From Sphyrna mokarran (lineage: Eukaryota): a stretch of DNA of 64,000 nucleotides. Both the position numbers and the translations under genes were made by a program. Location of the stretch: the NCBI GenBank assembly GCA_024679065.1, contig JAGIQG010000031.1:19778001-19842000 (forward strand). The letters are read 5' to 3'. The notes below the pieces were generated by a model. It made no database searches, was not told the DNA's origin, and saw nothing but the letters and a program-made list of their open reading frames with translations. How positions within the stretch are numbered: the first letter of the stretch is position 1; the number at the start of each line of letters is the position of its first letter. Of the stretch, positions 7,916 to 60,122 are shown piece by piece.

Positions 7916-8046
7916 TACACGCTGGTACAAAGGAGTTAACTCCCAAAACAGTCGGACAGTGAAAAGGTGCTGAAAGACCGCTCGGCATCTCCGAAAAGCA
8001 TTCGGTCAATCTTCAGATGTTATCCCTGTAATTGACAGCCCGAAAG

Positions 8047-8092
8047 ATGTTGTTGCCTCGTCTGATCTTCATTCTGCTGCAGCTTTTAAACT
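8047..8092 (+). CDS. Signal-peptide exon MLLPRLIFILLQLLN
   Basis: aagATGt start, hydrophobic run, strong donor T|gtaagt in phase 1; conserved in the inverted copy. Confidence 0.7.
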
Positions 8093-11000
8093 GTAAGTGA
8101 TTGAAGGTATTCACTTATCTAATAATGCGTAGTGCACAATTGAAATGTGTTCATTTTTGATGCATTGGACATTACTGAAATGTTCGTATAGTTACACATT
8201 CAGCATTCCTGAAGTGTGTGCATTATTGATACATTGACCATTACTAAAATATGTGCATTAATATAATAACAAAATGTTATGAAGAGCAGTCGAACACAGT
8301 CCCTTTTCACCTGCGGGGAAACATTGAACTTGAGCTGACAAGTGAAATCATTTTTGGCGAAACCTTTGAGTTTCGAATATATCTCAACTAACTGCAATAC
8401 TGACAGGCAAGTGTTGTGTCAAAATTAGATTTAAAAACTTAAGCGAATGCAAGTGCCACAGCAGCCCGCTGTGTTTTGTACGCTGTCGCTTTGTGCAGAA
8501 ACAACAGTCCAGAAATGAATTTCTAACCTACTGTTTGAAGCCAGCATTCGAGAGGTCGTGTCCGATTTTTGTTAGACCAGATTGTATTTCAGTTTGGGTA
8601 TACGTTAACTCACTGAGGGCAGACTCCAGGCAGAACTGCACGGACTCCCGACCGATCCGACACAGACGGATCTATAGTAGATATTTCTCAGCATCAGTAT
8701 TGTCTGAACACCATGCGGTACATTTAATCCAAGCATTTGCGCACTTTGTGCAGCCCTGAAGCGTTGCAAAATGGCAGCTAAGCTGGAGGTGCAACTTTTT
8801 ATTCAAAACCGTATTTAATATTTCTATCAAAGCAAATCACTGCCGTTGGTGGAATCTGAAACCAAAAGAGAAAATGCTGGAAAATCTCAGCAACTTCGGC
8901 AGCATCTGCAAGGAAAGGAAAGACTGACGTTTCGACTCCAGATATTCTCTTGCCATCCAGACTCCGCTTGATGACTTCAAAAGTTGTTTAATATAAAATA
9001 CTTCATTTATTTATACATACAGTGCCTTGTGCTAATTTACACTTCCTCAATCGTCCATATTTTCCACATATATATTTATACATTATCATGTGTTGAATTA
9101 CATGGAAACTTATTTTTATCAACTTTCCGCCTTCTCGATATGTCTTATTGAGTTGCTCAGTGCTTTTCCGATTCAGGTCCTCACTCATTCCAATGTGTGC
9201 ACATTGAACCAATGTGTTTGGTTACATTTGTTGATTTTTATATTATAATAATGCTGGTATGCCAAGAGGGACACTTTGTGCCACGGCTTCCTGATACTTT
9301 GTGCAGTTACTGAATATTGGATGCTAAGATCCGAAATATATGGTTTATTTAAAGTATATTATCATCGAGTGCAATTCGGTATTTCCCTCGGTTTGCGATT
9401 GCATCTCCGTTGCTGAATATTGCGATAGAAAGGCCTTCTTGAAGTCAGTCGGCAGGAGGTCTAGCTTGGGCTAGTGTTGTACACTCAGGGAGGTTAACTA
9501 ACAATGCAGGCTCCTGGATCCCTGAAGTAGCCACTTTGAGCTTGTTGGGTCCAACTAGTCTGCTTAGGATTTCGTTTTCTGTCTGCTTGTCTTTGCAAGA
9601 GCAACGGAGGACCAAGTAAAGCAAACCGCAGCAGCATTGGTGTTCAATGTTTTGTTTAAATGTTAAATTGGGAGATTAAAATGCTTGTTAATGAGATATA
9701 AGATGGATCAGAAATGTTAAATTAACACAAGGCAGTGTCTGTATGAAAATGAACAGAATACTACAAACAATATTAAAGGTGATCATATTGAATATCACCA
9801 GTAACTAATCACAAACTCGGAATTAATCTCAGATAGGTTTATCATTCAACACTATTTTATAGCCAAGTGCATCAAATTCAATTAAGACAATCGGTCTTCA
9901 TTTCTGCCACGGACCGTAAAAAACGTGCATTATAGTTGAGGTAATGGAATTTGCCTTTGAGATTTTCGTCATGTTTAGATTTCTTATTGAAAATAATCCC
10001 GCAGCCGCTTCTCTCCATTTCTCTCCAATCGCTTTGCATAGACGAAACAGATTGGAGTTAAAATATCAAGTGGCGCCGAGTTATAGGAAGTGGTCAGTAT
10101 TGGAATAGAGGGTATGGGAGTCAGAAATATTCGGGATATTAGATCAGCAAGGCCATCATTCAACCATGAATGTACCGACTGCCGAATCAACCCGCATTGA
10201 GATTTCTGTCCCCGGAGTTTCGCAGTGCAAGTTCAGTGTGAAGGCACTATCAAAGTATAAATAGTTTGCACAGATTGGAAAAATGTGATAAATATTGTAT
10301 GTATTGACCCGAAAATAACATCGTTTCATTGATTTTAAGTATTAATACAATTGTCCCAGAAGTCCCAAAAGTATTCCATTGCTCAGGTACGATTTGCTGT
10401 ATGTGTCTGCCTTTGACGTCAAATTAACTTTGGATGTCATGCACAGTGTCTTAAGATAATTCGTGCATTTGGTCTCTTAAGATCAAACTCTGTGTTCGTC
10501 GTCTACTGGGAGAGGAAGGGCTCCAATGAAGATTTGAGACAGTGGACCAGCAACACATTACTGAATCATACATCAAACTTGACGGGCCTTATGGTCTATT
10601 CCCGGCCCAGTGTGTGTTATTTCATCTCCTTTCAAATGGTCTATGTTCTGGTCACTTTGTTAACAAATCCTTTTGCCTATTTATCTTCGACTGATTGTGA
10701 CCAGAACAATTTGCATGGGTCCTGTAAAGTTTTTGCTTTACGTTTGGTTATATTCTGACCATGATAACGTTTACTCAGGCACATGCACAGAAATTTGGAG
10801 TTAGATATTTGGAAGTTACTGAAAGCACTATTGATTTGATTTAATTTAATTTAATGTTGGCACATGCATTAATACACAGGAAAAATATGCGCTATACAGA
10901 GAGAACATACCATTTTTATAGTACACAGGGGAGAAGGAAAGGAGAGAGTGCAGTATAATAGAGCATTGCTGTCTCTGGGTGTAGGGAAGGATCTTAATAT

Positions 11001-14000
11001 AAGGTACGTCCATTCAAAAGTGAGATATTTGTCTGGATTCTTCATGTCTGCTGTTTCAATGGCGTATTGAAGGATAATTCTCAAATTGTGAAAAAATAAT
11101 CTGCTTTCTATATCCTGCTCAGCTTCGGAACTTGTTCAGATAAGACATAGCTGATTAATATAAAACAATGATTTCAATTCTTCATGCAGCTAATAATGTG
11201 CTGGAGGAACATGATCTAGTAAACATTATTCACTGCATTTTGTAATTTTAAAATCGCCCTTGTAAAATACAGTTTCCAAGCCATGTAATAGAAAAGAAAG
11301 GATAGAAGATAGCAGGAATCTAACTTCAGGCAGAACGGAAAAGGTGATAAGTCTGAGAAGGGAATTTGTCTCTGAGGATGTTGTACCTAAATGCGCACAA
11401 TATACAGAAAAGGATAAATGAGCTTGTTGCACACTTTGAAATTGGCCGGGATATGTTGTGGATCTCACAGAGACATGGCTGCAAGGGGATCAGGACTCGA
11501 ATCTAAATATCCAAGGATATTGGTCCCATCGAAAAGACAGGCATATATGCAAAGGGGACAGGATGGCTCCGTTGGTAAGGAATGAAATTAAATCAATTGC
11601 AAGAAGCGATATAGGGCCAGAAGGCATAGAATTCTGTGGATGCGATAAAGAATGGCAAAGATAAAAGGATCCTCAAGGGAGTTATGTACGGGCCCTGTCG
11701 TGGTGGTCAATATGGGGCAGAAAATCAATCAAGAGGCAGAAAATGCCTCTTCAAGTTATTTAAGGCAATATTACAATAATCATGAAGGGCTTCAATATGC
11801 AGGTGGGCTGGGAAAATCAGGTAGGCAATGGATCCAAGAAATGGAGTTTGTGAAATGTTTAAGAGATAGATGAATTATTGGAGCAGCTTGTGACAGAGTC
11901 TACCAGGGAACAGGCAATTCTGGATTTGGTGATGTGGAATGGAGCAGACTTGATTAGGGAACTTAAGGTGAAGAAACCCTCAGAGCTGTGACCTCAATAT
12001 GATGGAATTTACCCTGCAGCTTGAGAGGGGGAAGCTGGAATCAGATTGTAGAGTACACAATACAGACAACTACAAGGACATGTGGAGGAGCTGGACAGAC
12101 GTGATTGAAAAAGCAAGCTTGCCGGGAAGACAGTGGATCATTAATTTTGGGGGCTATTCGGGAGGACAACAAAAATTCAGACCAAGGCGGAGGAAAAATA
12201 TAAAGGGGAGAACGAGGCATCCATGGCTAAAGAGTGAAGTCAAGGACAGCATAAAAGCAGACAATTCATACAACGAGGTGGGGATTAGTGGGAAGCCAGG
12301 GGATTGGAAAGTCTTTAAAAGTGAACAGAGGACAACTAAATAAGCAGTAAGATGAGAGAAGATGAGATATGAGTGTAAGCTAGTTAGTAATATAAAAGGA
12401 CATAGGAAGAGTATTTTTTAATATCTAAAAGGTGAGAAAAAGGCAAAAATACACATTGGCCACTGAAAAATTAGATTGGAGAAGTAATAATGCAGGAAAC
12501 AAAGAAATGGCAGAGAGAAACAAAAAGGACAGCATCGACAAGTTGGCTGAAGGATCTGTTTCCATGCTGTAAACCTTTAGGACTCTATGACTCTATCACT
12601 CTATAACTGAATAGTCACCTTCCATCAATTTTCATGATGGAAGATTCCAGTGGGATGACAGAGCACCAGAGAATCGGGGGCATAGGTGAGTGTAGTGGGC
12701 ATCACGAAGGAGAAGGTTCTGGAAGACTGAAAGGTGGATAAATCACCTGGACCTGGTGAACTATACCTCAGGGTGTTAAAATTGATAGGTGAGGAAATTT
12801 TGGAGGGATTGGTGGTGATATTTCAGGAATCACTGGAGGCAGGAAGATCCCAGAGGACTGAAATGATCAATCTGTGGAAATCTTTGCTGCACAAGGCTGT
12901 GGAGGCCACGTCATTGAGAGTTTTTAACCAGAGATAGATAGATCTTGATTAAAAGGAGATCAGGTGTTATGGGAAAAAGGCAAGAGAATGAGAGTGTAAA
13001 ACATATCCGACATGATTGAATGGTGGAGTATACTCAATGGGCCGAATGGCTTAATTCTGCTCTTATGTCTTATTGCCTTATGTAGCTAATTTCCAAATTG
13101 GAATACCAGTATTTCAGATCTCAATCAGCAAGGGAAATTGCGGTCCATGAAATTCCCCATTTTATTCTGCATTAGTTTGCGTCTTCTGAGTTTCCTGTTG
13201 TTTATACTAATATTACCGATTGATTGTTTGCCTTAAGAAGATGTGATTAACTGAAGTGCAACGTTTTAAAATAACTTTCAAATTTTTGCAATTAAGCAGC
13301 AGTGCCAGGAGTGAAATTTGCAGGGTTCTGTAATGTAGCTACTGTAGTCAGGGAAGCAGATTAGTTTGGTGAATGGTACATGCGCGACAGGATATCTGCC
13401 GCAGGATTTACAATCAGCTGTAGTTTAACGAGTTTGACATCTGACGAGGAGATGGTAGAAATCGTGAGTTTTAAGTTTTTAAGTTTATTTCTTAGTATCA
13501 ACAATGGCTTGCATTAACACTGCAAAGAAATTACGATGAAAATCACCTCATCGCCAAACTCCGGTGCACATAGAATTTGGCATGGCTAATGAACTTAATC
13601 AGCACACTTTTGGGACTGTGGGGTAAAACTGGAGGAAACCCACGCAGATATGGGACAGCGTTCAGTCACCGCACAGACAGTGACCCAAGCCAGGAACTGA
13701 ATCCGTGTTCCTGCAGTACCACCATGCCACCCACATTAATTTAACTTCTGTGTATTTGTTTAACATCTATGCATATATCGGTGATTAGGACAAATAAATA
13801 CTTTCAACATTTAACCAAACCAGCGGATCAGACACTATGACATGGGACCTGGGAGAAAATAGATTCGTGCAGATCATTCGTGGTGAAGCAGTAATGCCCG
13901 AGAAAGGAAAATGAATGAAATTTATGTGAGTTAATAAGCCCAGAGGAATGAGCACGAATAGGAATCAGTTTGCAGATGATTGCTTTTCACTTTCATGCCT

Positions 14001-17000
14001 TGGGCAGCCCTAGATACGTAGATAAACTGGATAAAGGTCTGCTCTTGAAACATTGAGTAATTAGAACAGAATGACATGAAAAAAACATAAGAGGAATTCA
14101 TCAGTACAATGAGGGGTTGAAAGGATATAAACAGGAAGCATATGGAGAGAAAACTGAATGGATTGAAGTAGACCCATCCATCTTCACCGATACGTCACTG
14201 ACATGTTGAGATTGTGAACCTTTTTGGGACAAAGAAAGATTATTTCCCCTGGTCTTTCAGTGGGTTGGAGGGGGAATTTCAGGATGCTGGCAGACAGAGT
14301 TTTTTAAAATTCATTTGTGTGACGTGGGTATCGCTGGCTGGGTCAGCATTTATTATCAAATCCTAATCACTTTTCAAGGGCAGTCAAGTCAACGACATTG
14401 CTGTGGCTCTGGAGTTACATATAGGCCATATCGGGTGAGAACGGCATATTCCCTTCCCTGAAGGACATTTTGAAACAGATGAGTGTTTCCTACAGGGGCA
14501 ATGGTTGCATGATCGTACAATATAATTCCAGATTTTATATAATAGAGTTCAAGTTACACCACCTGCCATAGTAGAATTCGAACCTTGGCCCCCAGACCAT
14601 AAGTTACCAGATCAATAGTCTTGTGATAACACCACTAAGCTACCGCCTTGCCTATAAAAACTAACATATTAATTACATGACAGAAGCAAGAACAGAAAGA
14701 GACAAGTAGTTGGGGAATTGAAAGATTAAGTACGTGGCTTGAAGATTGTTATGAGGAAATAGGTTTTGCTTCCTCGACACTGGCAGCTGCATTGCAGAAA
14801 GTAGGTGTTGTACGATTGGGACATCTTTCAACTGACCTGTGTTGGACCTGTGTCCTGATGTGCTGTATAAATAGAGTGGCGACGAGGACTTCCAAAGAAA
14901 AAGTGTGGGCAAGGGATAATGTAAGAGGGCATGTGGTAAATCAGAGGAAAATAACAAGGTAACAGAATGGTGATTTAGTTAACGATTGGGACATGAAGGG
15001 AAAGATAAATCAACTTTATGAGTATCGCAGCAGATGAGGCCGGAAACTGCAGAAATAGTAACAAGATGGAAATATAGAGGGGCTTACAGCACTCAGAAAC
15101 ATGGTAGCATTGATAGATATAATATACTGACTTGACAGTCAGTATAAGAAGGCCGAGGCTTAGATGTATATGTTGAAAAATACGAGATATTTTCAAGTGA
15201 TAGGAAGCGAGGAAAAGGAAATGAAATTACTCTGTAAATAAAAGGACATCATTGTTACAGTAGCTGGAGAGCAAGTATAGAATCTGTTTGAATAGAGATG
15301 ACAAATAGTAACGGTGAAATATCACACGTGGGAGTGGCACAGAGGACCCTGAACTGTGGGTACCAAAGGGTGCACATAAAAATCAATGGAACTCGAATAA
15401 AAAGTGCTGCAATAATCATGAGTGAGTGAAATCTACACGTAGCTTGGGCGAATCATATCATCAAATGTAATCTGGACCATAAATTCATGGAGTGTTTATT
15501 CTAAAAGAAGGAAGCCATATCTGGATTCATGCGCAGAATGTTGGCTTTCTTTGAAATATATATAATAGTTCGGGGAATGTTCACGCATTCGTGGGATGAG
15601 GGGCCTATTGAATGAAGGAAGATTGGATATTTTCGACCCATATCCATTTGAATTTAGAAGAGTGAGATATCTTGAGAGGCTTGGATAGAATAGATATCAG
15701 GAAGATATTCCACTTAGATTCTAACAAGGGGACGCGGTTTAAGAATAAGTCTACGTGTTAAGGTGGAGATTTTCGTCTCAGAGGGTCGTTACTCTACAGA
15801 ATTCACACCCAGAATGCAGTGGCGGCTCTGTTGTTGAATCTAATTAGGATGGATTGAAGCAGATTTTGGATCGGCAAGGCAGTGAAGGGTTGTTAATGGA
15901 ACGGGTTGCAGACAACAAAATGGAGTTGAAACTACAGTCAAAACAGCCAGGGAATTATTGAATGGCGGAGTACGTTCGACAAGCTGAATGGTTTACTCCA
16001 ATATTGCTTTGCATCATCCTAACAGCATTTTGAAATTGCAGCAAACTGCAATCATTAAAGAATGATGATCAAACATCATTAGCATGTTGAAGAATAGGGC
16101 AGGTCAGTGGAGGATAGGTTGCAACAGCGACCTGACTGTAGGGATTAATAAGCGGAATTTTATATCTTCGCCCCAGCAAGACCAGAACCTTTCACCCAGA
16201 TATTTCCAACACTCACCCACTTCGAATCTGTGGCGGGTAAGGTAGTAAAAATTCGGTGAATGATTGCAACCATAGAGAAGGAGTAGCGGTGAATCCATTG
16301 GTCTTGTTGAGTTTGAGAATGTTCGCAATTAACTCACTCCAACAGCTTCCTGTGTGCTCCGTTGTAGAAACTTTCGTTCCGATTTTACAATCTCTTTGAC
16401 CCCGTTTTCTAGAGCGAAAACTGGATAAAGTCAGTCGAGAGACCAATAGCGAGACCCGCGTCCGCCGACGCTCCGGATTCCCCCTTCACCAAGACTCCAA
16501 AATGGCTGCGCCAATACTCATGAGAAGGCGTTTGCATTAATTTCAATTGACTTAATGGACTGCAGGCCCATCTTTACTGGCATTTCCCCCTTTAGCATTG
16601 TGTTCGCCCACCCAGAATTGGCACAAAACTGAAATGTTCCTTAAAAGGCCGATTCCAGAACTCCAGTTAGTAGATACTTAGAGTCCTACGGCTCACTGCT
16701 GAGATCTGTGGACGAGGGGGTGAGTGGGGTCAGCTGCAACTTTGCCTCAGATCAGTGGGGGGGTGGGGAGGAGGGGCGGGGCCTGTCATCGGTCTGGGTG
16801 GTGGGTTTATGGACATAAAAGGGACAGTAATGTTGTGGAATGAGACAATTTCTGTTAGAAGAAGGAGGTGGCATTATCCGGTCCGGAAGGGATGCGGCAG
16901 GGGAGTGTGGTGTATCATGTTCTGTGCATGCGCAATTGGATGCGCCGAAGAGACCTACACCGTTATAGCATTTAACGCCGCACAAAGACTTCTACAGCAA

Positions 17001-20000
17001 GATTCGGAATCGCTGACATTTTTGCAGGCAAAGTACACCTCGCACTTTGAATGAAAATGGTAAAATAGGGCCCTGTGAGTTCCAAGTGGAAAGTTGCTTG
17101 CATTAAACCTTTTTTTTTAAAGTCAACCGTCACCAGTCAAAGTCAGAGCATTTAATTTAAATCATGTTTCCTTCCCTTCATGAAATCAGGATCGAGTTGC
17201 TCCAATTGGAATTCACCAGTGAACGTTGGAGCATAGGCATTAGGAACAGAAATTGGTGATTGAACCCTTGGAACATGCTCCGCCATTCAATCAGATCATG
17301 GCTGATCTTTCCCTGCTCTCAAATCCACCTCCCGACCTGAATCCCATATCTACTTAGCTTTTTTATCAGAGTGGTTACTGAGATTGCCATGGACACTGCA
17401 CCGCCTTTAAAATGTACACATATTTCAATGTCATTGGACAGACTGAGCCGCTAACACAGGGCCGATCACTGGAAGATTACAGAAGGAACAGAAAATCGCC
17501 CACAAGGACAGAAAGTACTCAGGTGTCATTCTGTATATGTGATATCAATTTGATTATATTTTGGCACATTGTCAATGTTGGATTGCTGGAGAAATCGTAT
17601 TTGTGCTTTCTTAATATGGGGAATGTGAAACTGATGTCATCATGTATCCCGATGTCATTTCTTCCATAAAGTATCGGAAATTCATACCCCACATTTGTTA
17701 CATTTGGATTTTTCTTTCATTTCCTGTCTCAGTGGATTATAACTCTGAACTTCTTATTTCAGACAGACCTGGGGACAATCAGACTATCCAACCAGGTAAA
17801 GTCTCTTTATGTTACTCGCTATCCCTGTTATTGCCCCACCTCGTTAAATATGAAGGCTGGTCCACAATCTCAATATCTTTTTGATCATAGATTAACCTGC
17901 TGTCTGGTTATCAATGGTGGGGATTGTGTTGCGTTCACTCTTCTGAATGAGCTTTCATTTCAATTCAGAGTGCTGTTGTCGCCAAACAAGTAGATAAAAA
18001 AAGAGACTCGTTGAAGAACAGAATGTGAAGGATCAGCTTCACTCACACTGCTCCCAATTTCCACCTCATCAATCAGATTGAAGTCGAAATCACACGAATA
18101 TTTTAAACAAGGGCACTCAGAAAAAAATGCCTCTGCTTGTGAGGGAGTCCAGAACTAGGGGTTAGAGTTTGACGATAAGCCTTTTAGGACTGTCCCGGAT
18201 TATCTCTGGGACTTGCGGGAAGCCGCTATTCTGCGTCGGCAAATGGGCTGCGGGACGGCGATCTCCGCACCGGGCAAGGCTCACTCTGGAGAAGGATCTG
18301 GATCAATTCTCCCAAAGAGTATTGAGTGCGACGAGCATGAGGCCTCCTTGTGGGATTGTGCTTGGTTTGACTATGCTCCAAATTCAGACTCCAAAGCTGC
18401 CGGTGTCATCTGCTCAGGTAAAAATCCTACTGCAGTCTCTCATTTCCAATCAGTTTCCCTGAAAAGGCGGAGGTAAAATAACCTTGGATTATTATTAATT
18501 GGGGACGGAACGGTGGCGCAGCCTTTAACACTGTTGTCTCACAGAGCCAGAGACCAGTGTTTGATTCCCGGCTTGGGCCACTGCCCGAGCGGAGACATTT
18601 TTATAGTAAAACAGGCCAGATGAGTAAACTGTTCAATAAATACACACAATCCTCTGGAAATTCCTGGAATCTGACCCATAGTTTTCTTCTGGTCACCATC
18701 ATTCGCAATCTCCTCCCCTTCTTTACTCGATTTAATATTCACTCCGGGTGTTCCCCTCCCCTTCGTTACCAGGTTTAATATTCACTCTGTTTTTTTTGGA
18801 GCGGGTGTGGCGTTTGTGTTTGGACACAGTCTAATGTTCTCATTGATTCCTCTGTCCGGTGAACGGGATGGGAATGTGCGGTGGGAAACTGCGGGTTTAA
18901 TCCACTGTAACGCCTGACATTATTTCTGACATTTTACAGAGGAGCGGATGCTGAGGCTGGTGAATGGGAGCAGTCGGTGCTCTGGGAGAGTGGAGGTTCA
19001 CTACAAGGGTCAGTGGTGGACTGTCCCGGATTATCTGTGGGACTTGCGGGAAGCCGCTGTTGTGTGTCGGCATCTGGGCTGCGGGACGGCGATCTCCGCA
19101 CCGGACAACGTTCACTTTGGAGAAGGATCTGGATCAATTCTACCAAAGAGTATTGGGTGCGGCTGGTATGAGACCACCTTGTGGGATTGTGCTTGGGTTG
19201 ATTATACTCCAAATTCAGACTCCAAAGCTGCCGGTGTCATCTGCTCAGGTAAAAATCCTACTGCAGTCTCTCATTTCCCGTCAGTTTCCTGAAAAGGCGG
19301 AGGTAAAATAATCATGGATTATTATTAATTGGGGACGGGACTGTGGTGTAGCCTTTAACACTGCTGTCTCACAGAGCCACGGACCAGTGTTTGATTCCTG
19401 GCTTCGTGCCGAGAAATTTTAAAGTAAAACAGGCCAGATGAGTAAACTGTTTAATAAATACACACAATCCTCTGGAAATTCCTGGAATCTGACCCATAGT
19501 TTTCTTCTGGTCACCATCATTCGCAATCTCCTCCCCTTCTTTACTCCATTTAATATTCACTCTTTTTTGGAGCGGGTGTGGCGTTTGTGTTTGGACACAG
19601 TCTAATGTTCTCATTGATTCCTCTGTCCGGTGAACGGGATGGGAATGTGCGGTGGGACACTGCGGGTTTAATCCTCTGAAACGCCTGACATTATTTCTGA
19701 CATTTTACAGAGGAGCGGATGCTGAGGCTGGTGAATGGGAGCAGTCTGTGCTCTGGGAGAGTGGAGGTTCACTACAAGGGTCAGTGGTGGACTGTCCCGG
19801 ATTATCTGTGGGACTTGCGGGAAGCCGTTGTTGTGTGTCGGCATCTGGGCTGCGGGCCAGCGATCTCCGCACCGGGCAAGACTCACTTTGGAGAAGGATC
19901 TGGATTAATTCTACCAAAGAGTATTGAGTGCGGTGGGCATGAGGCCTCCTTGTGGGATTGTGCTTGGTTTGATTATTCTCCAAATTCAGACTCCAAAACT

Positions 20001-32000: not shown

Positions 32001-35000
32001 ATCAGCAGCCCAGTCTGACTGTGACCACAAGGAAGATGCTAGGGTGATTTGTTCCGGTAAGGACTGCTCAGTACGTGGACATGACCAATTTCCAAAAATT
32101 AGGAAATTCATTTGGCTTTTAAAGTAAATCACCAACATTTGAAGTTATTAATGCCTGTCCAATATACCCCACAGGACTGGATTTGTCACCGAATTCTTCT
32201 CAGAACACACCTTCTGGTAATTGGTCTATATAACCTTTCTAGAATTGGTGTTGATGTTACAATTCTTCCCAATGATGCTGCTTTCATTTACAATGATCCA
32301 CTTTTGCTAATTTCTGAATAAGGGTTGATTTCCCATTGATGGCAACATTGAAAGTGTGCAAGGGGACACTATGTCTCTGTTAAATGTTTCTGTATCTTAT
32401 GACGAGCAGATGCCAATCCCATTCCCCTGGTCGTGTGCGTGACCCTCGGAGTGCTGGCAATCCTGGAACTGATCACACTGCTGGCAGTAATATTGAGAAA
32501 GTTCAAAAGAAAAGGTGAGCCTCCAATGTCCAAATAGCATTGAAATATTGATATTGATTTATATCCTGGGGCTGTTGTTTATCACATCTTTCCAAAGAAC
32601 GTCACTTGAAGTAACCCGAAAAAAAACTCTGAACTTCGTTTTGCAATTCTCATCCGCATTGGTAACTGTGAAACTAATTAGAGAATCCACATAGTGCGCA
32701 AGGAGCAATTCTTTTCACTATATACATGTGACAATAATAAATCAAATCAAAATCTTTCACTACCCAGTTTATCTCAGACTCCAGAAAGACTCACTCGTTT
32801 AAATAATGGAAATGAAAGTTTAACGGAACTCTTTCTTAAATATTCTTTTATGTGTTATGTAGCTGTTTTTCTCTCTCATTATCATGAGCCTCATGTCTAG
32901 TCGCGAACACTTTGCACCAGATTCTGTGCAATATTCTTCAGTGACTTGCAGCATTCTCCAGTAATTCTACATCCAAACACAAATATTTCACACATAATCC
33001 AACAACCAATGCACCGTTGATCTACAGGTCACTTTTCCCTTGGAAATCATGGCCTGCTCAGTACCACCTCCTAACTGATGAGACCACCGCAGAGGTCAGT
33101 CAAATTTCTGCCTGGGTCCAATTCAGTTGAATTCCCCACGTGGCCCGTCACGAATGATTTGCTGGGACTCATTTTGTCTGACACTCTGCAGAGGGTCCTA
33201 CCCATACTCCCCCATCCCTCCCCAAACACTTGTTTTGTCTTTTCCGACTTTCTTGCAAATGGGTTCTGTTCTGCTGGAGGTGAACGAACGCTTATTACAA
33301 ACATAAAAATGCACATTCACGGATGCACCGATTCCAGAGCATATCCACATGCAAACTAACTGGCTTTATCTTGGGAATCTCATCACATCTGTGGTTTGTT
33401 TATCAGCCTCGGGCATTTTACTGTTAACCGCCCGTGCAATGCAACAACATGCTGATCACCTTTCCTTTCCTTTAACAGATACTGTCGCTCACCACTTGGC
33501 TTCGCCTTCTGCGTCCGACCAAGGAATTTATGCAGAGATTGAGAATATTGAATCTGACCGCAATTCACGGGGTTCAGGTTTGTATTCTACTTCTCTTTTA
33601 CTCAGTCTTCACAGAATAAGTCTGGCTTCTACGTAAATTCAAATGGTCACATCATTAAATGGGGAAATGGACAGTCCAGTGACTTTCCAGTGTGAAAAAG
33701 CCCCATCATGTGTTTTTTTCTGCCTGTGAAATGATTCATTGGCCTGGGAAGACTCTATATTTGTCAGAGAATGTGTGTTCGAAAAAGTGTGTATATCTCC
33801 ATTTCCAGATATTTCTAGTATCTGAGTTAGTGAACAACAATCTCATCAGTGGATAGCTGTCATGTGTAAACCGCCCATTTCTAATCCAGTATGGAAAAAG
33901 TGCAACAGGCGAGGATTCACGAATGGATCTTGCAGAGAGAATGGACCAGAAGGGATAGAAGAGAAAATCGGGGAGCAACTAGGCAATTTCGAACTTAATG
34001 TAACACACTTAATGATAATAACTCAGAACAGATTGGAGAAGTGCTGAATTTCAGGAACTGATAATGAACTTGAAAATATTTAATGGACCCCTTTCACAAA
34101 CAATGATGCATCTCAACAATAGCTAATAATGCAACAGGTTAAAACAAATGAGAAGCCATGGGTCCAATGAGAACCATGGAGGGAAAAGGGGAAAGTAAAA
34201 GCAGGCAATGCACAATGAAGCAAATAGATGGAAGAGTAGAGGTGGCGGTGGGAGTGGGGTGGGGGGGCGGGGGTGAGGTGGAGCGTGGGGGGCAGTGAGT
34301 AACATGCTTGGATTGTACAGAGATGTTAAGCAATTGATAATTCAATGAGATGACATTTTTAAGGAGCATCTCATAAAATAGCTTAATGTTCTATTCGAAT
34401 GAGAAAAACGATGCTGGAAAGAAATATGATCAATTATTGAAGAATATGATAAAATCATAAAATCCCCGCCATTCAATAATAGGATGGCTGATCTGATTGT
34501 GGCTCTGCCTTTCCCATGCCTGTCACACAACACATTAATTCATTATAGATCCAAAATCTATCTTAAACAGCTAGACAACAGTCAATGAGCCCCTAACCAC
34601 TCTCTGTCAAAGAAAGTTACAAAAACAGAAGATCTTTAGTGAGAGAAGAATCCTCCAAATTTCGAGCTGAAGTGAAGACTCAATAATTTAGAACTGTCCC
34701 ATGAATAAAGAACAAGCAACAAAAGTGAAATAATCAAAGTATTGAAGAATTGTTTCATTATTAATACTCCATAAAATTGTTGGACATAACATTGGAATTT
34801 AGATTGATCTAATTACATGAAATTAATACAAATTCAAATTGTAAACGAATAAAGCAGAGAAGGTACACCTCCTGGTGTGGAAGGAATTCAAACATGTATT
34901 TTAAATAAATCAAAAGAGATACCAAAGGCTCAATGAGAGGTATTTGATAACTGATTGGAAATTAGTAAATTGACCGTGTTCTCGCATATAATTGTTTTTA

Positions 35001-38000
35001 AAACTACATAGAAAAAAAGGAACTGTGGCCTACCCAGCTTAACATTCATGAATCCAGGCGATGCGGGTGGTTAGCGGGAATTAATCGAACAAATGCTGAA
35101 AGAGGAAGAAAAAAACAATGAATGAATAGAAACAAACAAATAATAATACGTAGTCAACCTTCAAAGTACAATGGCTTGCTTAACCAACATCATCAAAATC
35201 CCTGCAGAACTAGCAGGGTAGTATAAATAATGGTGAAAGTGCAATTTATCATAATTTCTGAAAGGTCCTTGATAAGGCACCACAGATTAGGCATCTGGAG
35301 AATGAGAGTTAATTTACAGCACCTGTGGCTTAGGTTGTAGCATTCTAATTTCAATGTCCAAAATTTGGGTTGCAAGTCCTTCTCCAGAAATAAAACATGA
35401 AAACTAAGGCTGTCATTACAATGCAGTGCCAAGGACTTATTCCACAGCCAGATGTTCCAACTTGGAACTAAGCGTGAAAGTGTGAGGATAACGGGTAAAC
35501 CTTTTAGGATTAAGGTGAGGAGAAATTTCTTCATTCACAAATTCATGACCACAAAACGTAGTTCAAGCCAAAACATTGGGTGATTGCAAGAAGAAATTAG
35601 ATGCAGCTCTTGGGGTTAAACAATAGATATGGGGCAATGCGGGATCAGGATATTGAATTTGATGATCATCCATCATCCAAGTGAACGGCAGAGCAGGCTT
35701 GGATAGCCAAGTGTTCTATTCTTGCTTCTATTTTCTATGTTTGGGTGAGACATTAAAGCGAGGACCTTTATGCCTTCTCGTGTGAACAGAAACATCCCAT
35801 GATGCCATCTCACAGGAATGCAGTGAGAAATTCACTGTGTCCTGGGTAATATCACAAAAGCAGGCAACTTGATAATTATCATATTTATTTGTGAGAACTT
35901 ACTGTGTGCAAACAGCTCATGGTTTCTACATTGCAACATCGACTACATCTCAAAAGTACTTAGTTAGGAAATCTCTTCCAGTAATCGTGAGATATATGGA
36001 GTTAGAAGGCAAGAAATCACATGACTAACTAATGGCAAGAAAGGTGAAAGCAGAGAGAAGGAGAAAGATTGGTTGCTTGGAATGGCAGAAAAAGTAAAAT
36101 GATATGTTGCAACAACTAGTCCATAATCATAATTGACTTGAGTCAAAAATGAGATTTTCTAAATTTGTCAAAACCACCAAATTGTGATGGTGATGAGGAG
36201 GGATTTGGAAGAGTTTAGTGAATACTTTAGAGTCCTTTAGAGAAGGACAGAAACAAATTACTAGAAAACATTCATAGAAATGTAGAATTGAAAATTATTG
36301 ATAACTGTAGCAGCTATGAAGGCATATATATATCATGAAGTAAATTAAGGAGATGATATATTATTTGGAATGTAGAATCTTTGCAAGGAACAATACAATT
36401 GTTGGATGTAGATTATTAAAGCTGTTCAAAACCACTGGCAACTATATCTCGAGAATGGGAATTGGAAAGTAAATAACTTGTGCCAAATGTTTTTTTTTAT
36501 ATAGAGATCGCATGTGGTGGAGGCTTTATCTTTCGTTTCAGCATATCATCAAATGGACATAGAAATGCAAGAGATTGTCCAAAATATTACCTGAGTCATG
36601 GGGTTATAATTAGAAGGATTAAATAGGCTGGATCAGTTTCCCGAGAAAAGTGATTCAAGACAAAGGCACTTTCAGTTTCTGTAACTGCTGTTGCCTGATT
36701 GTAGTTTCTGGGAGCTGGGATGGTGATTCTGGGTCAGAGATTATCGTTTACCGTCTGCAAAGTAACTGGATATAGCATACTGCGTTTAAGTTTAATTTTC
36801 ACAAGCACGCTTACTTTCACATTGCAATGAAGTTACTGTGATAATCGTCTGATCGCTACATGCTGGCGCCTGATTGGATACCCTGAGGGAGAATTTGGCA
36901 TGGCAAGTCAATCTAACCAGCACATCTTCGGACTCTGGGGGGGAAAACGGAGGATATCCATGCAAACACGGGGAGAACATGCAAACTCAACACAGCGACC
37001 AAGCTAGGAATCAAACCCGGATTTATGGGGTTATGAGGCAGCAGTGCTAATAACTGTGCCACCATGCACCCCACTGCTCTAATATGCGAGATATTACCAA
37101 TAATAATGAGTTAGAATAGTGATTATTATATCTGTCGAGGACAGGAGCAACATTTATTTTTGCCTTGATTGGGGTGATTTGGGGATTACAGTTTCCTTCT
37201 CTTTGAGCCATTTGTCCGCTTTGTGAATCCCAAAATCATGGCAGGTAATAAATTCTAAGGCATTGTCACAGGCACAGTTAAGGTATTATGCGCTTGTCTC
37301 CTATATTCCAAACAAGCTCTCCAATAACTACGCATTTTTGTCTTTAACAGTTTCCATTAACTCCCTCAATCAGATGGAATATTACACCAATCGTAGTTTG
37401 AGTGACACAGAATCTGGATCAGAAAATCCTGAAGGGAGCTTCTCCGGAATTCAATGTGGGTACAATTTCACTTGCTGCCTTCGTGCTTTTTGAACTTCAT
37501 CCACTTTGGTATAAAACCCACGTCATTCACCACCCTGACTTGGAAAAATAACATCGCTCCTTCACAATCCTGAGACTCTGTCCTTAAAAGCACTGTGGGT
37601 GTACCTACATTGTGTGGGCTCAGCATTTCAATAAGGCGGCTCACCACCACCTTATCAAGGGCAATTGGAGATGGAAAATATACACCAGTAAATGGCCCAG
37701 ACAGCGACTCTCAGATTCCAAGAAAGAATTTTATAAACTTACTTACAAAAAACCAAAATAGAAACTATGAAATAACTCGAGCAAGGGTCCATAGTATTTC
37801 AGAGTAGACTTACCTTCAAAAAGAATGGAAATACTTCTGATTTGAAAGTGAGTAATATCGATAATAGTCGTTGGTACAAAGCAATGAAAATTCCATCTGC
37901 TGTGTCTTCTCGCAGAACTTTCTTTACAGACAGTGAAATGGGTCTAGTTCGAATGGGGAAGTGGAGGCAGGGGGTGGGGTGAGGTTGAATGTGATTTCGA

Positions 38001-41000
38001 AATGAGATTAACCTAACCCAATATGACATGGTCCATTTGTTCCCTATCCCCTGACTTCCACAGTACGCCCTACAGAACCCGAGTAGATTGTTGCATGATA
38101 ATATAATCTTTATAAAAAGTGTTAGAGTTTGGTGTTAGTGAAAGTTCCTATTTCCTCGCAGGTCCAGTTCCAAGTGATTATGACTATGTTGAGACTGAAC
38201 CTGTTGACACTCAGGACGGTCATATATCGCTGGGCAGTGTTCCTGAGGATCACTTCACATTGAGAGATGCTGGCGGTGATCTCTGTACACTCGGTGAGTC
38301 GAACCCCTGACATTCCCACAGCCTTACCATTCTTCTATACACGGGACTGTTTGAATTCGATTCCAATCCGCGGAAAATGTTGTTACTACAGTAAATCTAA
38401 ATGCAACAGCAAAGCTATCCATTTACTCTCTACAAATTGGCATTGCCAATGGTCCGTAGCATTAGAGGATAGTGTTTTTTGCAAAATATTTGATTTACTA
38501 TTGTCACATGTATTGGAGTGCAATGAAAAGTATTGTTTCTTACGTGCTATACAGACAAAACATACCGTTCATAGATTACATATAGGAGAAAGAAAGGAAA
38601 AAATGCAGAACACAACGTAGCTATTTGAGATAGAGTGTCGAGAAAAATCGGTTTCACGTGTGGAAGGTTCTTTCAAAAGTCTGATGGCAGCTATCAAGAA
38701 GATGCTCTTACGTTGGCTGGAACGTGTTCCTGATGAAGAGAACATGTCCAGCGTGCTTGGGGTCCTTGAATATGCTGGTTGCTTTCCCGAAGCAGCGGGA
38801 AGTGTAGATGGAGTCAATGGAACGGAGACTAGTTTGCGTGATGGACTGGGCTGTATTCACAACCCATTATAGTTTTCTGCAGTTTTTTTCAGAACAGGAG
38901 CCATACCAAGCTGTTCAATGAAACACTGGGGACACATACTTCAAAAATAAAATCTACAATCACAAGAACTTCCCCCTCAGGTGGTTGATCAACATTGTTG
39001 AACTCACACAGAGTCCTGAAGGATGATGAGCCTCTTTGACTCTTTATGTCAGAAGCTCATGGGTGTCTTCAACTGATCAGCTGCCCCAGCTATTTTCCTC
39101 TCTTCCAGAGACCATTTATTCAAACGTCCTCCAAAGTTACCACTTTTTTGAGTCTCTGACTTGTCTAATGTTCTTGTTTCTCCCATATTTACCCACACAC
39201 TCTCTTTGAACTGAACTGAATCTTGTCAATGAGAACCACCTTTTAGTCCCACGACATCATTGCTATTAAAACCTTAATGACCCAATTATCCTTCCTCCTC
39301 TCAATGCCGTCTGATATTGCAAACAGTTTCTCCTCCCCTTCTAATTTATTTGCTAATCCTTTAAATCCAAAGTTGAAATATTTCATTACCTAAATTTGAG
39401 GTTAAGATGTTGCAGGATTGTCCCCAGTGTTTCATTGAACAGCTTGCTATGGCTCCTGTTCTGAGCAAAACTGCAGTATTGAATTGCCAGTGGCTGCCGT
39501 AACGGCTGAGTTCTGGAGGTGGAATCAGTGTTCATATGGAGGAGAGAAGCTTTCTTACTGCAGTTCTGCTGTATGACAGTTTTAGCTGGCTACTGAGTTA
39601 CATTACAACAGACCAGTTGCTGTGCTTGGTAACTGTCTGGGCTAAAAGATGGTTTGAGATGACCCTCTAAAAAGGCAACGTCCAAAGTTGTGCATATGCG
39701 GTTGATTGGCTATTGTAAATTGGCCCTTCGTGTCATGGGGTGGGGGTGGGGATGCTCGCAGGTTAAATAACTGGTGGTAGGGGAATAGGACCTGAGTGGG
39801 ATTGTTGTCAATGTAGGGTCGATGGGCCAAATGGCCATTCTCTGCACTGTGGGGACTCTATGATGACTAGATTCCTTCACTGTGACTGAATTAACAGACT
39901 GCCTGCCTGTTCAATAGCCACAACTAGATAAAGAACAAAAATCAAACCTTCTGTCCAATTCAATACTGAGCTGAGTGTAGACCTGAAAAACAAATATTTA
40001 TGTTCTACTTACTGACTGCATCTCTCTCCCTGATAACTTTCTGAGCCCGTGCTCTTTGATTGCAACGTTTGGTGTTATACACTGGACCAAGGGATAATCT
40101 TTCCTCAACTGCACCATTGCCCGATTCCACTCTAACCTCAGCTCAATTTGCTTTGAAACCTTCATCCTTGCCTCTGGAACCTGACAAGCCGATTGCTTTT
40201 GGTTAACCAGAAGTGCGTTAGAACATAGTTCGCACCCTCAACCTAGTTCTCACCTTCAACCTAAGGTTATCAAAGCTCTCCTGCCAATACTACTACTCTC
40301 TCCAACTCCTGCTCACCTATCATTGCTATGTTTTCTAACCTACATTGGATGCCACTATTCATTTTAAAATCCACATTCTTCCTTTCATGTCTCACCAACA
40401 CTCATCCTACTTCCTATAATTTTCTCCAGCCCTGCAGTGTTTCTCTGATTCTTGCTTGTTGAACAGGCCTGATTGTAATCGCTATGTTAGTGCTGGCTGC
40501 GAATTCAGTTTTCATTCTTAAAGTTACAAATCCCATGCTCAGAACGGGCAAACCGAAATGCATTTCTTGCTTGCTCCAAGAACCAAATTCGAAATCCAAT
40601 TGAATCCAATTCAAGGTCCCCACAAGGGAGAATAACAAGATCCAAGCTGGCAAGATGAGGCATTTGACCCCATCTTGGGCCGGACGCTTGATCTTAGCCA
40701 AAACATTTCTTTGACTCGCCATCCCTCTTCCCAGTTATAAATCAAATATTGCTTCAAGATAATCCCATAAAAGCTTGAAATACTGAATTATGTTTGCGGT
40801 GCAGTCGAAATATAAGATAATGTTATTGCCTCAATCCCATCGTTAATCCATTATTTGTTTTTCCCCATAGAATACAGTTCTCATCCCAGTTTACCATTGC
40901 CTCCCATGCCTGGAAATGATGAGGATGTTCACCCTGACACGCTCACAGCTCCGGAGTTTCCGCTGCCAGGGAGCAATTACTCTGTAATAACATCTGCATC

Positions 41001-41010
41001 AAACTACTAA
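8047..41010 (+). CDS. Spliced gene for a CD163/WC1/SCART-like group-B SRCR type I membrane receptor; join(8047-8092,17763-17795,18940-19248,19711-20019,20496-20804,22725-22982,25001-25315,28184-28495,30116-30430,31197-31514,31742-32056,32410-32514,33479-33577,37351-37455,38162-38293,40871-41010), ~1139 aa; an extra small exon 2 is possible
   Basis: All listed exons have canonical GT/AG boundaries in phase 1, internal exon lengths divisible by 3 and no stops; one exon per SRCR domain (group B hallmark); TM exon and Tyr-motif tail follow. Confidence 0.85.
8593..8677 (+). CDS. Possible exon 2 completing the signal peptide (FWVYVNSLRADS...); donor uncertain
   Basis: Acceptor ttgtatttcag| is in frame with exon 1; only a weak phase-1 donor (A|gtagat) was found. 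Confidence 0.3.
8830..8965 (-). mobile_element. Penelope-like terminal fragment (mirror ~58165-58300)
   Basis: gaatctgaaaccaaaagagaaaatgctggaaaatctcagca...cagcatctg...gacgtttcga. Confidence 0.55.
10830..11022 (-). mobile_element. Rex1/Babar-like LINE 3' UTR fragment with (AAATC)n tail (mirror ~56045-56245)
   Basis: Same 3' end as the copies at ~23860, ~38490 and ~45390, the last retaining RT C-terminal sequence. Confidence 0.55.
11370..13082 (+). mobile_element. Old, internally deleted CR1 LINE (endonuclease to 3' end)
   Basis: Frameshifted remnants LYLNAHNI, TETWL, DKSPGPGELY.RVLK and VVIFQESL; tail atgggccgaatggc...ttatgtctta. Confidence 0.85.
13480..13735 (-). mobile_element. HE1-related SINE
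   Basis: Reverse complement of tRNA head, ggaggaaacccacgcaga core and aataaact tail. Confidence 0.75.
14300..14650 (-). mobile_element. Deu-type SINE (SacSINE1-like), near full length
   Basis: attcatt...gtgggtatcgctggctgggtcagcatttatt...cccttccctgaaggacat...ccactaagctaccgcc. Confidence 0.75.
15150..16010 (+). mobile_element. Degenerate CR1 fragments
   Basis: CR1-like endonuclease remnants and 3' end (gaatggcggag...gctgaatgg..tactcc). Confidence 0.55.
16150..17075. repeat. GC-rich interspersed repeat(s), probably non-autonomous DNA transposon/MITE-like
   Basis: Termini gcggaatttta...gtaaaaattcgg and gtaaaatagggccc; CpG-rich relative to the surroundings. Confidence 0.4.
17763..17795 (+). CDS. 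33-nt linker micro-exon (xRPGDNQTIQP)
   Basis: cttcttatttcag|...ccag|gtaaag, phase 1-1; conserved in the inverted copy at 48262-48294. Confidence 0.7.
18188..18417 (+). pseudogene. 5'-truncated SRCR pseudo-exon (tandem unit 0)
   Basis: Lacks the first ~25 codons and the native acceptor; fused to a CR1 remnant at ggact; 230 nt is not frame-preserving. Confidence 0.8.
18940..19248 (+). CDS. SRCR domain 1 exon (6 Cys, lacks C2/C7)
   Basis: ttttacag|...tcag|gtaaaa, 309 nt; LRLVNG..RCSGRVEV...GVICS. Confidence 0.9.
19711..20019 (+). CDS. SRCR domain 2 exon (6 Cys, lacks C2/C7)
   Basis: 309 nt, phase 1-1, paralog of domain 1. Confidence 0.9.
20496..20804 (+). CDS. SRCR domain 3 exon (6 Cys, lacks C2/C7)
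   Basis: 309 nt, phase 1-1, more diverged paralog of domain 1. Confidence 0.9.
21305..21645 (+). mobile_element. Deu-type SINE (SacSINE1-like)
   Basis: ggcagatggtggaatttgaatt...aaaacccatc...gatgggcaataaatgctggc. Confidence 0.7.
21870..22180 (+). mobile_element. HE1-type SINE
   Basis: ctcacagcgccagggatctgggttcgattccc head and CR1-like tail. Confidence 0.75.
22303..22590 (+). mobile_element. HE1-related SINE with aataaataaact tail
   Basis: ggtggcacagtg head; tgcgtgggtttcctccgggtgctc core; ttttcacagtaac...aataaact end. Confidence 0.8.
22725..22982 (+). CDS. SRCR domain 4 exon, short (86 codons), lacking the C5-C6 loop
   Basis: ttctcag|GC AGT GCG AAG...tcag|gtacaa; FGEGLGPVIGPPDCGHQQDVGVICS. 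Confidence 0.85.
23855..24080 (-). mobile_element. Rex1/Babar-like LINE 3' fragment
   Basis: ttgaattgatttattgttatcacat...ttcaaaagtctgatgacagcagg. Confidence 0.6.
25001..25315 (+). CDS. SRCR domain 5 exon (8 Cys)
   Basis: attcag|AC CAC AAA GAT CTC AGA CTG...tcag|gtgagt, 315 nt. Confidence 0.92.
25410..26395 (+). mobile_element. Degenerate CR1 fragment (RT to 3' tail)
   Basis: Remnants of LEYCVQFW; tail tgggccgattgccc...ttctataattctatg. Confidence 0.7.
27065..28052. repeat. C-rich interspersed repeat, putative non-autonomous DNA element
   Basis: Abrupt composition shift; ends gggcgtaattt... and ...tgaattttaggcc. Confidence 0.3.
28184..28495 (+). CDS. SRCR domain 6 exon (6 Cys, lacks C2/C7)
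   Basis: tttgtag|AT GAA AAT TGG...tcag|gtgaaa, 312 nt; WGRVQD replaces WGTVCD. Confidence 0.92.
28640..28902 (-). mobile_element. HE1-related SINE
   Basis: gactgtgggaggaaa...cacccggaggaaac...gggattcgaacacaggtccctggcgct. Confidence 0.8.
30116..30430 (+). CDS. SRCR domain 7 exon (canonical 8 Cys)
   Basis: WGSVCDDSW...GPIWLDDLKC...HDCSHKED; acag|...tcag|gtaagg, 315 nt. Confidence 0.95.
31197..31514 (+). CDS. SRCR domain 8 exon (8 Cys)
   Basis: tgacag|AG CAC AAG...tcag|gtaacg, 318 nt. Confidence 0.95.
31742..32056 (+). CDS. SRCR domain 9 exon (8 Cys, membrane-proximal)
   Basis: tttag|GT CAG CGT TTG...tccg|gtaagg, 315 nt. Confidence 0.93.
32410..32514 (+). CDS. Transmembrane exon DANPIPLVVCVTLGVLAILELITLLAVILRKFKRK
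   Basis: Hand translation (absent from the ORF track); ~23 hydrophobic residues then a basic stop-transfer; cag|...aaag|gtgagc, 105 nt. Confidence 0.88.
33479..33577 (+). CDS. Cytoplasmic exon 1 (DTVAHHLASPSASDQGIYAEIENIESDRNSRGS)
   Basis: cctttaacag|...tcag|gtttgt, 99 nt; YAEI motif. Confidence 0.82.
34990..35745 (+). mobile_element. Degenerate CR1 fragments with interspersed SINE remnants
   Basis: aaaccttttaggattaaggtgaggagaaatttcttca and tail ttcttgcttctattttctatg. Confidence 0.55.
36788..37072 (-). mobile_element. HE1-related SINE
   Basis: cattgcaatgaagttactgtga...gaggcagcagtgctaataactgtgccacc. Confidence 0.78.
37351..37455 (+). CDS. Cytoplasmic exon 2 (VSINSLNQMEYYTNRSLSDTESGSENPEGSFSGIQ)
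   Basis: tctttaacag|...caat|gtgggt, 105 nt, phase 1-1. Confidence 0.75.
38162..38293 (+). CDS. Cytoplasmic exon 3 (CPVPSDYDYVETEPVDTQDG...DLCTL)
   Basis: ttcctcgcag|...ctcg|gtgagt, 132 nt; acidic DYDYVE motif. Confidence 0.8.
38488..38915 (-). mobile_element. Rex1/Babar-like LINE 3' fragment
   Basis: Minus strand reads PSTLPAASGKQPAYSRTP (frameshifted DSIYTSRC..KA.SI.KDP.H); 3' UTR shared with the other copies. Confidence 0.65.
38877..39476. repeat. 58-bp inverted repeat pair (38877-38934 / 39419-39476)
   Basis: Direct reverse-complement comparison gives 3 mismatches. Confidence 0.9.
39670..39865 (+). mobile_element. HE1-type SINE 3' half
   Basis: gtccaaag.tgtgca...gattggctat...gatgggccaaatggcc...ctgcactgtgggga. 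Confidence 0.7.
40110..40470 (+). mobile_element. Ancient L2-like LINE fragment
   Basis: Remnants resembling ETLIHAF...SPITPVL.DLHWLP...FKIL. Confidence 0.45.
40871..41010 (+). CDS. Terminal coding exon EYSSHPSLPLPPMPG...PGSNYSVITSASNY*
   Basis: Strong acceptor ttgtttttccccatag|; phase 1; open to TAA at 41008-41010; contains PxxP and SxYxxI motifs. Confidence 0.72.
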
Positions 41011-60076: not shown

Positions 60077-60122
60077 AGTTTAAAAGCTGCAGCAGAATGA
60101 AGATCAGACGAGGCAACAACAT
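60077..60122 (-). CDS. Signal-peptide exon of the inverted copy
   Basis: Identical MLLPRLIFILLQLLN with gtaagt donor. Confidence 0.6.

Follow-up and report, generated by a model that had tools for sequence, protein, structure and literature searches.

The question raised by the 64,000-nucleotide window of the Sphyrna mokarran genome analysed here (G000:C894:19778001-19842000) is what kind of receptor is encoded at positions 8047 to 41010, where nine SRCR domains are followed by a membrane helix and a cytoplasmic tail, and how such a receptor might work. Judged by its predicted domains and anatomy, it almost certainly belongs to the CD163/WC1/SCART family. A further reading has it both sensing patterns and serving as a co-receptor on lymphocytes of the shark, gamma-delta-type T cells being the likeliest, and to this we give a probability of roughly one in two.

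The spliced model joins 18 exons into 1172 amino acids with no internal stop when the join is translated, and it describes a type I membrane protein with signal, linker, nine SRCR domains, transmembrane helix and a 164-residue tail. Exon borders were fixed by AG/GT sites and phase after six-frame scans and self-searches of the window, which yielded nine whole SRCR exons on the plus strand (all within 18940-32056) along with a truncated remnant, and two copies on the minus strand. Every intron is GT-AG and phase 1, each SRCR domain is a single exon, and 9/9 of these exons pass the Pfam SRCR cut-off. The features of the gene are as follows.

8047-8092, plus strand: exon 1, ATG and putative signal peptide (46 nt; hydrophobic stretch of 15 residues, GT donor; identical or nearly so in the cluster copies)
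17763-17795, plus strand: exon 2, linker of 11 residues (33 nt, AG/GT; like the linker before the first SRCR domain of hornshark P0087)
18188-18417, plus strand: 5'-truncated SRCR remnant (230 nt; splicing it in would shift the frame, and it is presumed to be skipped)
18940-19248, plus strand: SRCR domain D1 (6 Cys, without C2 and C7; distal, a/h class)
19711-20019, plus strand: SRCR domain D2 (recent repeat of D1, 85% identity to it)
20496-20804, plus strand: SRCR domain D3 (repeat, D1 type)
22725-22982, plus strand: SRCR domain D4 (short form, 86 residues; lacks 21 residues including C5 and C6)
25001-25315, plus strand: SRCR domain D5 (8 Cys; b/c class, c by position)
28184-28495, plus strand: SRCR domain D6 (6 Cys, n type)
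30116-30430, plus strand: SRCR domain D7 (9 Cys; d by position; full acidic cation site)
31197-31514, plus strand: SRCR domain D8 (8 Cys, e type)
31600-31656, plus strand: spacer exon between e and d' (57 nt, 19 residues; matched in P0147)
31742-32056, plus strand: SRCR domain D9 (8 Cys, d' type)
32175-32216, plus strand: stalk exon, rich in Ser, Pro and Thr (42 nt, 14 residues; matched in P0147)
32410-32514, plus strand: transmembrane exon (WC1-type Pro...Cys-x-x-Leu-Gly; Glu ten residues past the Cys)
33479-33577, plus strand: tail exon 1 (motif IYAEI; most relatives YEEI)
37351-37455, plus strand: tail exon 2 (motif EYYT)
38162-38293, plus strand: tail exon 3 (motif DYDYVE; relatives YDD-V/A-E)
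40871-41010, plus strand: tail exon 4 (Pro-rich, ends in the stop codon)

The initial annotation, made on the sequence before this work, had placed a signal, a linker, nine SRCR domains, a transmembrane segment and a tail between 8047 and 41010. These were confirmed, with the ATG at 8047, signal and linker exons of 46 and 33 nt, nine SRCR exons, a transmembrane exon and four tail exons, the last ending with the stop at 41010. Its description of a complete receptor holds in that the join is open over the whole 1172 residues, but the spacer and stalk exons had been overlooked; spacers and stalks seen in relatives led to the search that gave them, and between e and d' spacers of 15-28 residues are seen in WC1 and in relatives from turtle, birds and sharks. 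The accompanying statement that no interdomain exons were found is accordingly not supported, although a WC1-type exon of ~30 residues was indeed not found behind the c-type domain of the window gene. Cysteine numbers from D1 to D9 are 6, 6, 6, 6, 8, 6, 9, 8 and 8, as had been reported for every domain except D7, which had been credited with eight. The tail of about 160 residues described as Tyr-rich measures 164, and its richness amounts to eight tyrosines. Support from D3 onward comes from P0147, an NCBI entry from Mustelus asterias ("DMBT1-like, partial"), which matches the model at 83% identity across 884 aligned residues, starting in the middle of D3 and running to the C-terminus, small exons included; this is the annotation of another shark rather than RNA, and it does not reach the signal, linker, D1 or D2. 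Two candidate exons were dropped: one near 33029 in the tail, which has an in-frame stop, and a small one at 27147-27212, a place where P0147 has no insert.

Domain identity was assigned from trees of SRCR domains cut from database relatives and lettered by position in bat CD163A and in sheep and deer WC1, following PMC2906472. A quick tree held 217 domains from 24 of 120 proteins plus those of the window; careful trees held 85 and 90 rows without repeats, the larger also without one long coelacanth row, and all trees used 104 columns. In the 90-row tree D6 falls, with support of 100/99, among 6-Cys domains located ahead of d-e-d' in turtle, buzzard, coelacanth, lungfish, chimaera and a glider protein with the automated name SCART1-like (domain 4 of P0203). 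D6, without C2 and C7, is the diagnostic n domain of CD163c-alpha/SCART. D8 groups with e domains (98/87) and D9 with d' domains (99/91 in the 85-row tree, 98/90 in the 90-row tree), while D5 lies inside the b/c clade (100/99, 90-row tree) and closer to b in the 85-row tree (97/80). D4 forms a clade with hornshark and chimaera domains (95/94, 90-row tree), D7 belongs to a chondrichthyan clade that the careful trees did not place with tetrapod d, and D1 and D3 sit in a polytomy of a, h, i, j and k (95/93, 90-row tree). Within the cassette c-n-d-e-d', n, e and d' are resolved, D5 is b/c class only and D7 is d by position. The predicted order of the window gene is x-x-x-short-(c)-n-(d)-e-d', close to chicken hybrids that have an N-terminal a followed by c-n-d-e-d'. 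The initial annotation had called the order non-standard, which is not supported: the order is largely standard, and the proximal five domains, read with D5 as b or c and D7 by position, match CD163c-alpha and the chicken hybrids of PMC2906472.

No window domain grouped with DMBT1 in the quick or the careful trees, and a constraint uniting the shark n domains with DMBT1, a group named after the tree was seen, was rejected by the approximately unbiased (AU) test (p-AU 0.023). None grouped with k in the careful trees. D1-D4 do not group with glider domain 1, the sole m/l candidate reference, which has a long branch (1.89), and no window domain joined the only SSC5D-named entry, from a snake, in the quick tree; SSC5D is a secreted protein, and the window gene has a membrane helix. 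The trees held no CD5 or CD6 rows and no mammalian SSC5D; nine domains argue against CD5 and CD6, which have three. As in CD163 group B receptors, the SRCR domains are one-exon units of 6-8 Cys (D7 having a ninth and D4 lacking C5 and C6), with e and d' before the membrane, and as in WC1 the gene belongs to a multigene array whose distal domain is the most variable. Trees and AU test thus uphold the earlier assignment to CD163/WC1/SCART rather than DMBT1, and the grouping with DMBT1 that had been named as part of a refutation did not occur.

The 404 kb around the window contain four signal-to-stop copies of the gene, one of them with a single distal domain, together with a 5' half ending at a gap of 100 Ns, an inverted 5' piece, an inverted tail piece and a 3' half. 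All mapped exons of the cluster copies are flanked by AG and GT and have an open frame (the stalk exon was checked in the window only). Beyond this cluster, a genome search with tail exon 2 gave 86 candidates, of which 68 are matches, 6 at 91-100% identity and 62 at 53-69%. Family genes elsewhere in the genome are called sister genes here. The sister n exon has at least 68 close matches, about 60 of them whole and stop-free, compared with five n exons of the window's own subfamily, and the sister distal exon has at least 90 matches; both counts are lower bounds, as 150 were scored of 736 and 731 candidates. These matches lie nearly all on C894:1-5 Mb, C1005 and C738, and haplotype duplication may account for a few that sit on small contigs. 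The family numbers roughly 70 related genes, with at least five near-identical copies in the window's cluster and about 65 sister genes outside it. Five sister genes read whole have 1-3 distal domains followed by b-c-n-d-e-d', transmembrane helix and tail, and a b or n exon is broken in three of the five.

The Pro...Cys-x-x-Leu-Gly signature of the membrane helix is common to the window gene and WC1-type entries, and the three tyrosine motifs of its tail align in the same order with turtle and deer WC1-type tails, which bears out the WC1-type membrane region and tail proposed earlier. The helix was found in 32 of 40 paralog stretches and the Glu in 31 of these 32; five of the eight misses are stretches of more distant SRCR genes. 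Among database helices, whose entries are not independent of each other, an acidic residue is present in 14 of 16 from elasmobranchs (exceptions P0077 and P0087), in neither of two from chimaera and in none of 55 others (four without a species name). The acidic residue is a feature of sharks and rays and not of chimaera or the bony vertebrates examined. Receptors are joined to adaptors, CD3 and DAP12 among them, by charged residues in the membrane, and self-association through the Glu is as possible as adaptor pairing. A YAEI sequence, such as that of FAK, is able to bind the SH2 domains of Src-family kinases. When tails are scored on a profile of 12 tails from bony vertebrates, four other elasmobranch tails reach 10.9-26.1 bits (the skate input overran its tail), compared with 1.8 for bat CD163A and 6.1 for elephant CD163L1. 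The predicted homology of the tail to the WC1 type is clear via the shark relatives and weak for the window tail alone. The first motif of the sister genes is YEEI or YEEV, and nearly all fit the WC1/CD163c-alpha consensus Y-(Q/E)-(D/C/E)-(I/L) given in PMC2906472. An inhibitory reading of the last motif as like an immunoreceptor tyrosine-based inhibitory motif was dropped because the tyrosine is missing in P0147 and one cluster copy.

The distal domains are where the copies differ most. Three sets of exons were compared in the sister family: 29 distinct distal ones, drawn from the best 30 of 90 loci, 29 of the n type, drawn from the best 30 of 68, and 32 of the d' type, drawn from 35 stretches. 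Mean identity is 0.84, 0.96 and 0.88, respectively, and the Nei-Gojobori ratio of nonsynonymous to synonymous substitution (dN/dS) is 0.89, 0.18 and 0.42, at dS of 0.11-0.14. Variation in the distal domain is concentrated at the SRCR cation site, with a mean entropy of 1.86 at six positions compared with 0.45 over the whole domain; the p value of this excess was printed as 0.00000 with 100,000 draws, whereas n gave 0.17 and d' 0.78. The six positions are those of the SALSA SRCR8 cation ligands D1019, D1020, D1058, D1059, N1081 and E1086 (PMC7043408), which belong to cation sites 2 and 3 of that structure and were placed by spacing; they were taken from the paper, but the variable columns had been seen before this test was chosen. 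Loop-wise pN/pS values of 1.06-1.52 were set aside, as the loops were picked after the data were seen. In the window's own cluster, 14 distal exons have a mean identity of 0.81 compared with 0.93-0.98 for D4-D9, with noisy pN/pS. D7 of the window keeps all six acidic cation-site residues and D1-D3 keep one, so that the predicted ligand of D1-D3 probably binds in some way other than by the usual cation bridge.

Anatomy, domain types, family size, variation pattern and conserved tail tyrosines are what this analysis establishes. Membership of the CD163 family was reached by test, whereas a WC1-like way of working is something we infer because anatomy and variation pattern match WC1. In cattle, WC1 is a hybrid of pattern receptor and T-cell receptor co-receptor, and co-stimulation by it depends on the tyrosines of its tail (PMC8356672); none of its domains varies more than the distal one (PMC3511184). 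The putative gamma-delta (tcrg/tcrd) cluster of cod is marked by a CD163-like gene (PMC9276791). By analogy, the distal domains D1-D3, which vary in number (1-3) and sequence among copies, would bind microbial or stress ligands with copy-specific preference, and the more conserved rod of D4-D9 would keep them clear of the membrane. Co-clustering with the antigen receptor would allow Src-family kinases to phosphorylate YAEI/YEEI and the two later motifs, and the phosphorylated motifs would recruit SH2 proteins and raise the response, as in bovine WC1. The elasmobranch membrane Glu may steady a contact between two helices, the second belonging to another copy of the receptor or to a partner that has a basic residue.

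Several observations weigh against this sensor and co-receptor model. Expression, cell type and ligand are all inferred, and family membership does not fix the cell type, as bovine CD163A is widely expressed (PMC2906472). The variation analysis comes mostly from the sister family and not from the window gene, and the dN/dS contrast within the window's cluster is unclean (distal 0.95; D6 0.95 and D8 1.24, these two from five sequences each). Whole-domain dN/dS is below 1, so the distal diversity may reflect relaxed constraint or gene conversion. Tree support rests on 104 columns, and a clade of D1/D3 with WC1 a was neither rejected nor shown (p-AU 0.47). The first tail motif, YAEI in the window and P0147, lies outside the WC1/CD163c-alpha consensus, and the window tail reaches only 9.2 bits on the profile (the best of 500 shuffles scored 8.9, and 0/500 reached 9.2), a score that horse CD163L1 exceeds with 9.4.

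Among the other ways of accounting for the gene, a myeloid CD163-like scavenger or pattern receptor, which would bind microbes or debris on macrophages or granulocytes and signal or internalise without a link to an antigen receptor, is possible though doubtful. CD163A has b-c-d-e-d' and is a monocyte/macrophage receptor in humans (PMC2906472), D1-D3 fall in a clade that also contains its h, i, j and k domains, and a large variable family fits innate cells equally well; however, the shark gene has n, no k-type domain and a long multi-Tyr tail unlike that of bat CD163A, which scores 1.8 bits on the WC1-type profile, and the cod CD163-like gene marked T cells (PMC9276791). We are more doubtful of a CD5/CD6-like receptor that would tune other lymphocytes (alpha-beta T, B or natural killer-like cells) and bind host molecules more than microbial ones. 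Group B SRCR receptors of immune cells include CD5 and CD6 (PMC2906472), and the loss of most acidic cation-site residues from D1-D3 could suit a protein ligand, but cassette, membrane helix and tail are of WC1/SCART type, and about 90 variable distal exons suit diverse foreign ligands better than a single host ligand. A bolder version of the co-receptor idea, in which about 70 WC1-like receptors form a germline repertoire with a hypervariable distal site and clonal T-cell expression, and in which the acidic membrane residue docks on a basic residue of an antigen or activating receptor, leaving a single chain to serve as sensor, co-receptor and signalling adaptor, strikes us as unlikely.

Two further explanations bear on the standing of the gene itself. 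The half copies, the inversion and the 100-N gap in the cluster, and a dead exon with a usable acceptor ahead of D1, would fit a silent or decaying copy, or an assembly duplicate, in an unstable array, but 18 exons without stop or frameshift, differences of ~0-6% between copies outside the distal exons and an 83% identical counterpart in another shark make this quite improbable. That the gene encodes an epithelial DMBT1/SSC5D-type agglutinin, as the database names imply, is hardly credible: the nearest entries are indeed named DMBT1-like, and single window domains score about equally on DMBT1 and CD163 structures, but P0147 has neither CUB nor ZP, a transmembrane helix and predicted signalling tail are present, and the trees and the AU test on D6 separate the window domains from DMBT1. 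The initial annotation had foreseen this automated label, and the closest database relative carries it. We favor the sensor and co-receptor reading on shark lymphocytes.

Two peculiarities of the rod deserve mention. D4 reads as a shortened SRCR domain common to other chondrichthyans, as the same short end occurs in hornshark, sevengill, sawshark and catshark entries and in P0147; the chimaera lineage, which supplies two domains of the D4 clade, split off ~420 million years ago (PMC6238376). A D4 model built on 15 SRCR rows has a mean confidence (pLDDT) of 92 and a structural similarity (TM) of 0.91 to SRCR structures, though full-length rows in the input may pull it toward the SRCR fold. Within the genome the short form occurs five times, in the window's cluster only. 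An unpaired ninth Cys was seen in D7 of the window gene and several elasmobranch entries, and in the last domain of five sister genes (L045-L079); it is possibly a dimer link. The idea that the ninth Cys of D7 forms a disulfide with the Cys of the spacer was given up because P0147 has the former without the latter and the five sister genes lack the D7 Cys.

The remnant exon, the surrounding tandem cluster and an inverted duplicate downstream of the gene had all escaped the initial annotation. The remnant is present in four of the five plus-strand 5' copies and in the inverted copy, the features of which are listed here.

46555-64000, minus strand: inverted partial duplicate of window positions 4172-19498 (93.8-98.4% identity), containing the remnant too
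60122-60077, minus strand: inverted duplicate of the signal exon
48294-48262, minus strand: inverted duplicate of the linker exon
47115-46807, minus strand: inverted duplicate of one D1-type exon

Together with the inverted tail piece (C894:19856123-19859770), this duplicate looks like one inverted block of the array, which may be either a real inversion or a misassembly. The residue at the signal/linker junction (8090-8092 joined to 17763) is Tyr in the window gene and Cys in sister genes and hornshark. Window positions 1-912 hold a LINE-like open frame with a reverse-transcriptase match (PF00078). A 346-residue open reading frame for a putative seven-helix, G protein-coupled receptor-like protein lies 11 kb before the first cluster copy (C894:19591550-19592587, plus strand; L011), and the first coding exon of a tachykinin receptor, matching substance-P and neuromedin-K receptors best, lies ~57 kb past the cluster (C894:19932679-19933110; L039:679-1110, minus strand). 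The synteny markers PF00121 and PF05025 gave no match in the genome by family search, probably since their exons are short. More distant SRCR exon clusters were seen at C882:3.76-4.0 Mb (with n-like exons at 51-56%), C1104:127.8-129.6 Mb, C1038, C1:144.1 Mb and C794:41.5 Mb; no family-type transmembrane helix was found in five stretches sampled from such clusters. In database entries P0011, P0019, P0035, P0041 and P0045 a transmembrane helix and tail stand mid-sequence and are followed by further SRCR domains, which are probably neighbouring genes fused by automated annotation.

No description of this shark family was found in the literature searched, most subscription papers and supplements lying outside it, so that an earlier mention is possible; PMC6238376 and PMC9207270 have CD163 in their reference lists only. 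The proteins themselves are already public under other names (DMBT1-like). The gene puts the WC1/SCART-type combination of cassette, membrane signature and tail tyrosines into cartilaginous fish, and this would date such receptors to the jawed-vertebrate ancestor, far earlier than the birds and mammals that serve as examples in PMC2906472. The shark repertoire of immune receptors that sense microbes is likely to be large and has been little described, and its size and its variation at the predicted binding face make it a test case for diversified SRCR co-receptors as an ancient part of T-cell recognition. The family offers candidate surface markers for shark lymphocyte subsets, and the acidic membrane residue, confined to elasmobranchs, sets it concretely apart from every bony-vertebrate relative examined.

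Compared with known systems, the gene is closest to P0147, its likely orthologue, which shares the short D4, spacer, stalk, membrane Glu and YAEI tail, but is partial at the N-terminus and has neither the spacer Cys nor the final two tyrosines of the tail. The sauropsid WC1-CD163c-alpha hybrids (chicken CD163_1 and CD163_8 of PMC2906472, turtle P0094, buzzard P0113) share a distal a/h-class domain, c-n-d-e-spacer-d' (with c and d by position in the shark gene), the membrane signature, a long tail with the same three tyrosine motifs and a multigene family; the shark gene differs in its three tandem distal repeats, the short D4 in place of b, the membrane Glu and YAEI for YEEI, and its family counts about 70 genes compared with at least 18 in chicken. 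Bovine and ovine WC1 resemble it in the 6-Cys variable distal domain, e-spacer-d', membrane signature, multi-exon tyrosine tail and gene array, but neither the WC1 order a-b-c-d-e-d-b-c-d-e-d' nor the interdomain exon after c is found in the shark gene, which has n and whose distal domain stays in the a/h/i/j/k polytomy. CD163c-alpha and SCART1/SCART2 have the n domain, the c-n-d-e-d' cassette (c and d again by position) and a membrane receptor with a tyrosine motif in common with it; in the shark gene no m or l domain was recognised, the family is large rather than one or two genes, and the cytoplasmic part uses the transmembrane exon plus four tail exons, whereas bovine CD163c-alpha uses two exons, one of them with the transmembrane segment (PMC2906472). 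CD163A (M130) and CD163L1 (M160) share b/c, e and d' types, and CD163A also the number of nine group B SRCR domains, but the shark gene lacks k and has n and a long multi-Tyr tail; DMBT1, unlike P0147, has CUB and ZP. The proposal that the gene is a shark counterpart of WC1/SCART therefore stands for the family but not for strict membership: because its tail motif reads YAEI and domain a is left in the polytomy, it is not to be filed as WC1 or SCART proper, but as a member of the wider CD163/WC1/SCART family.

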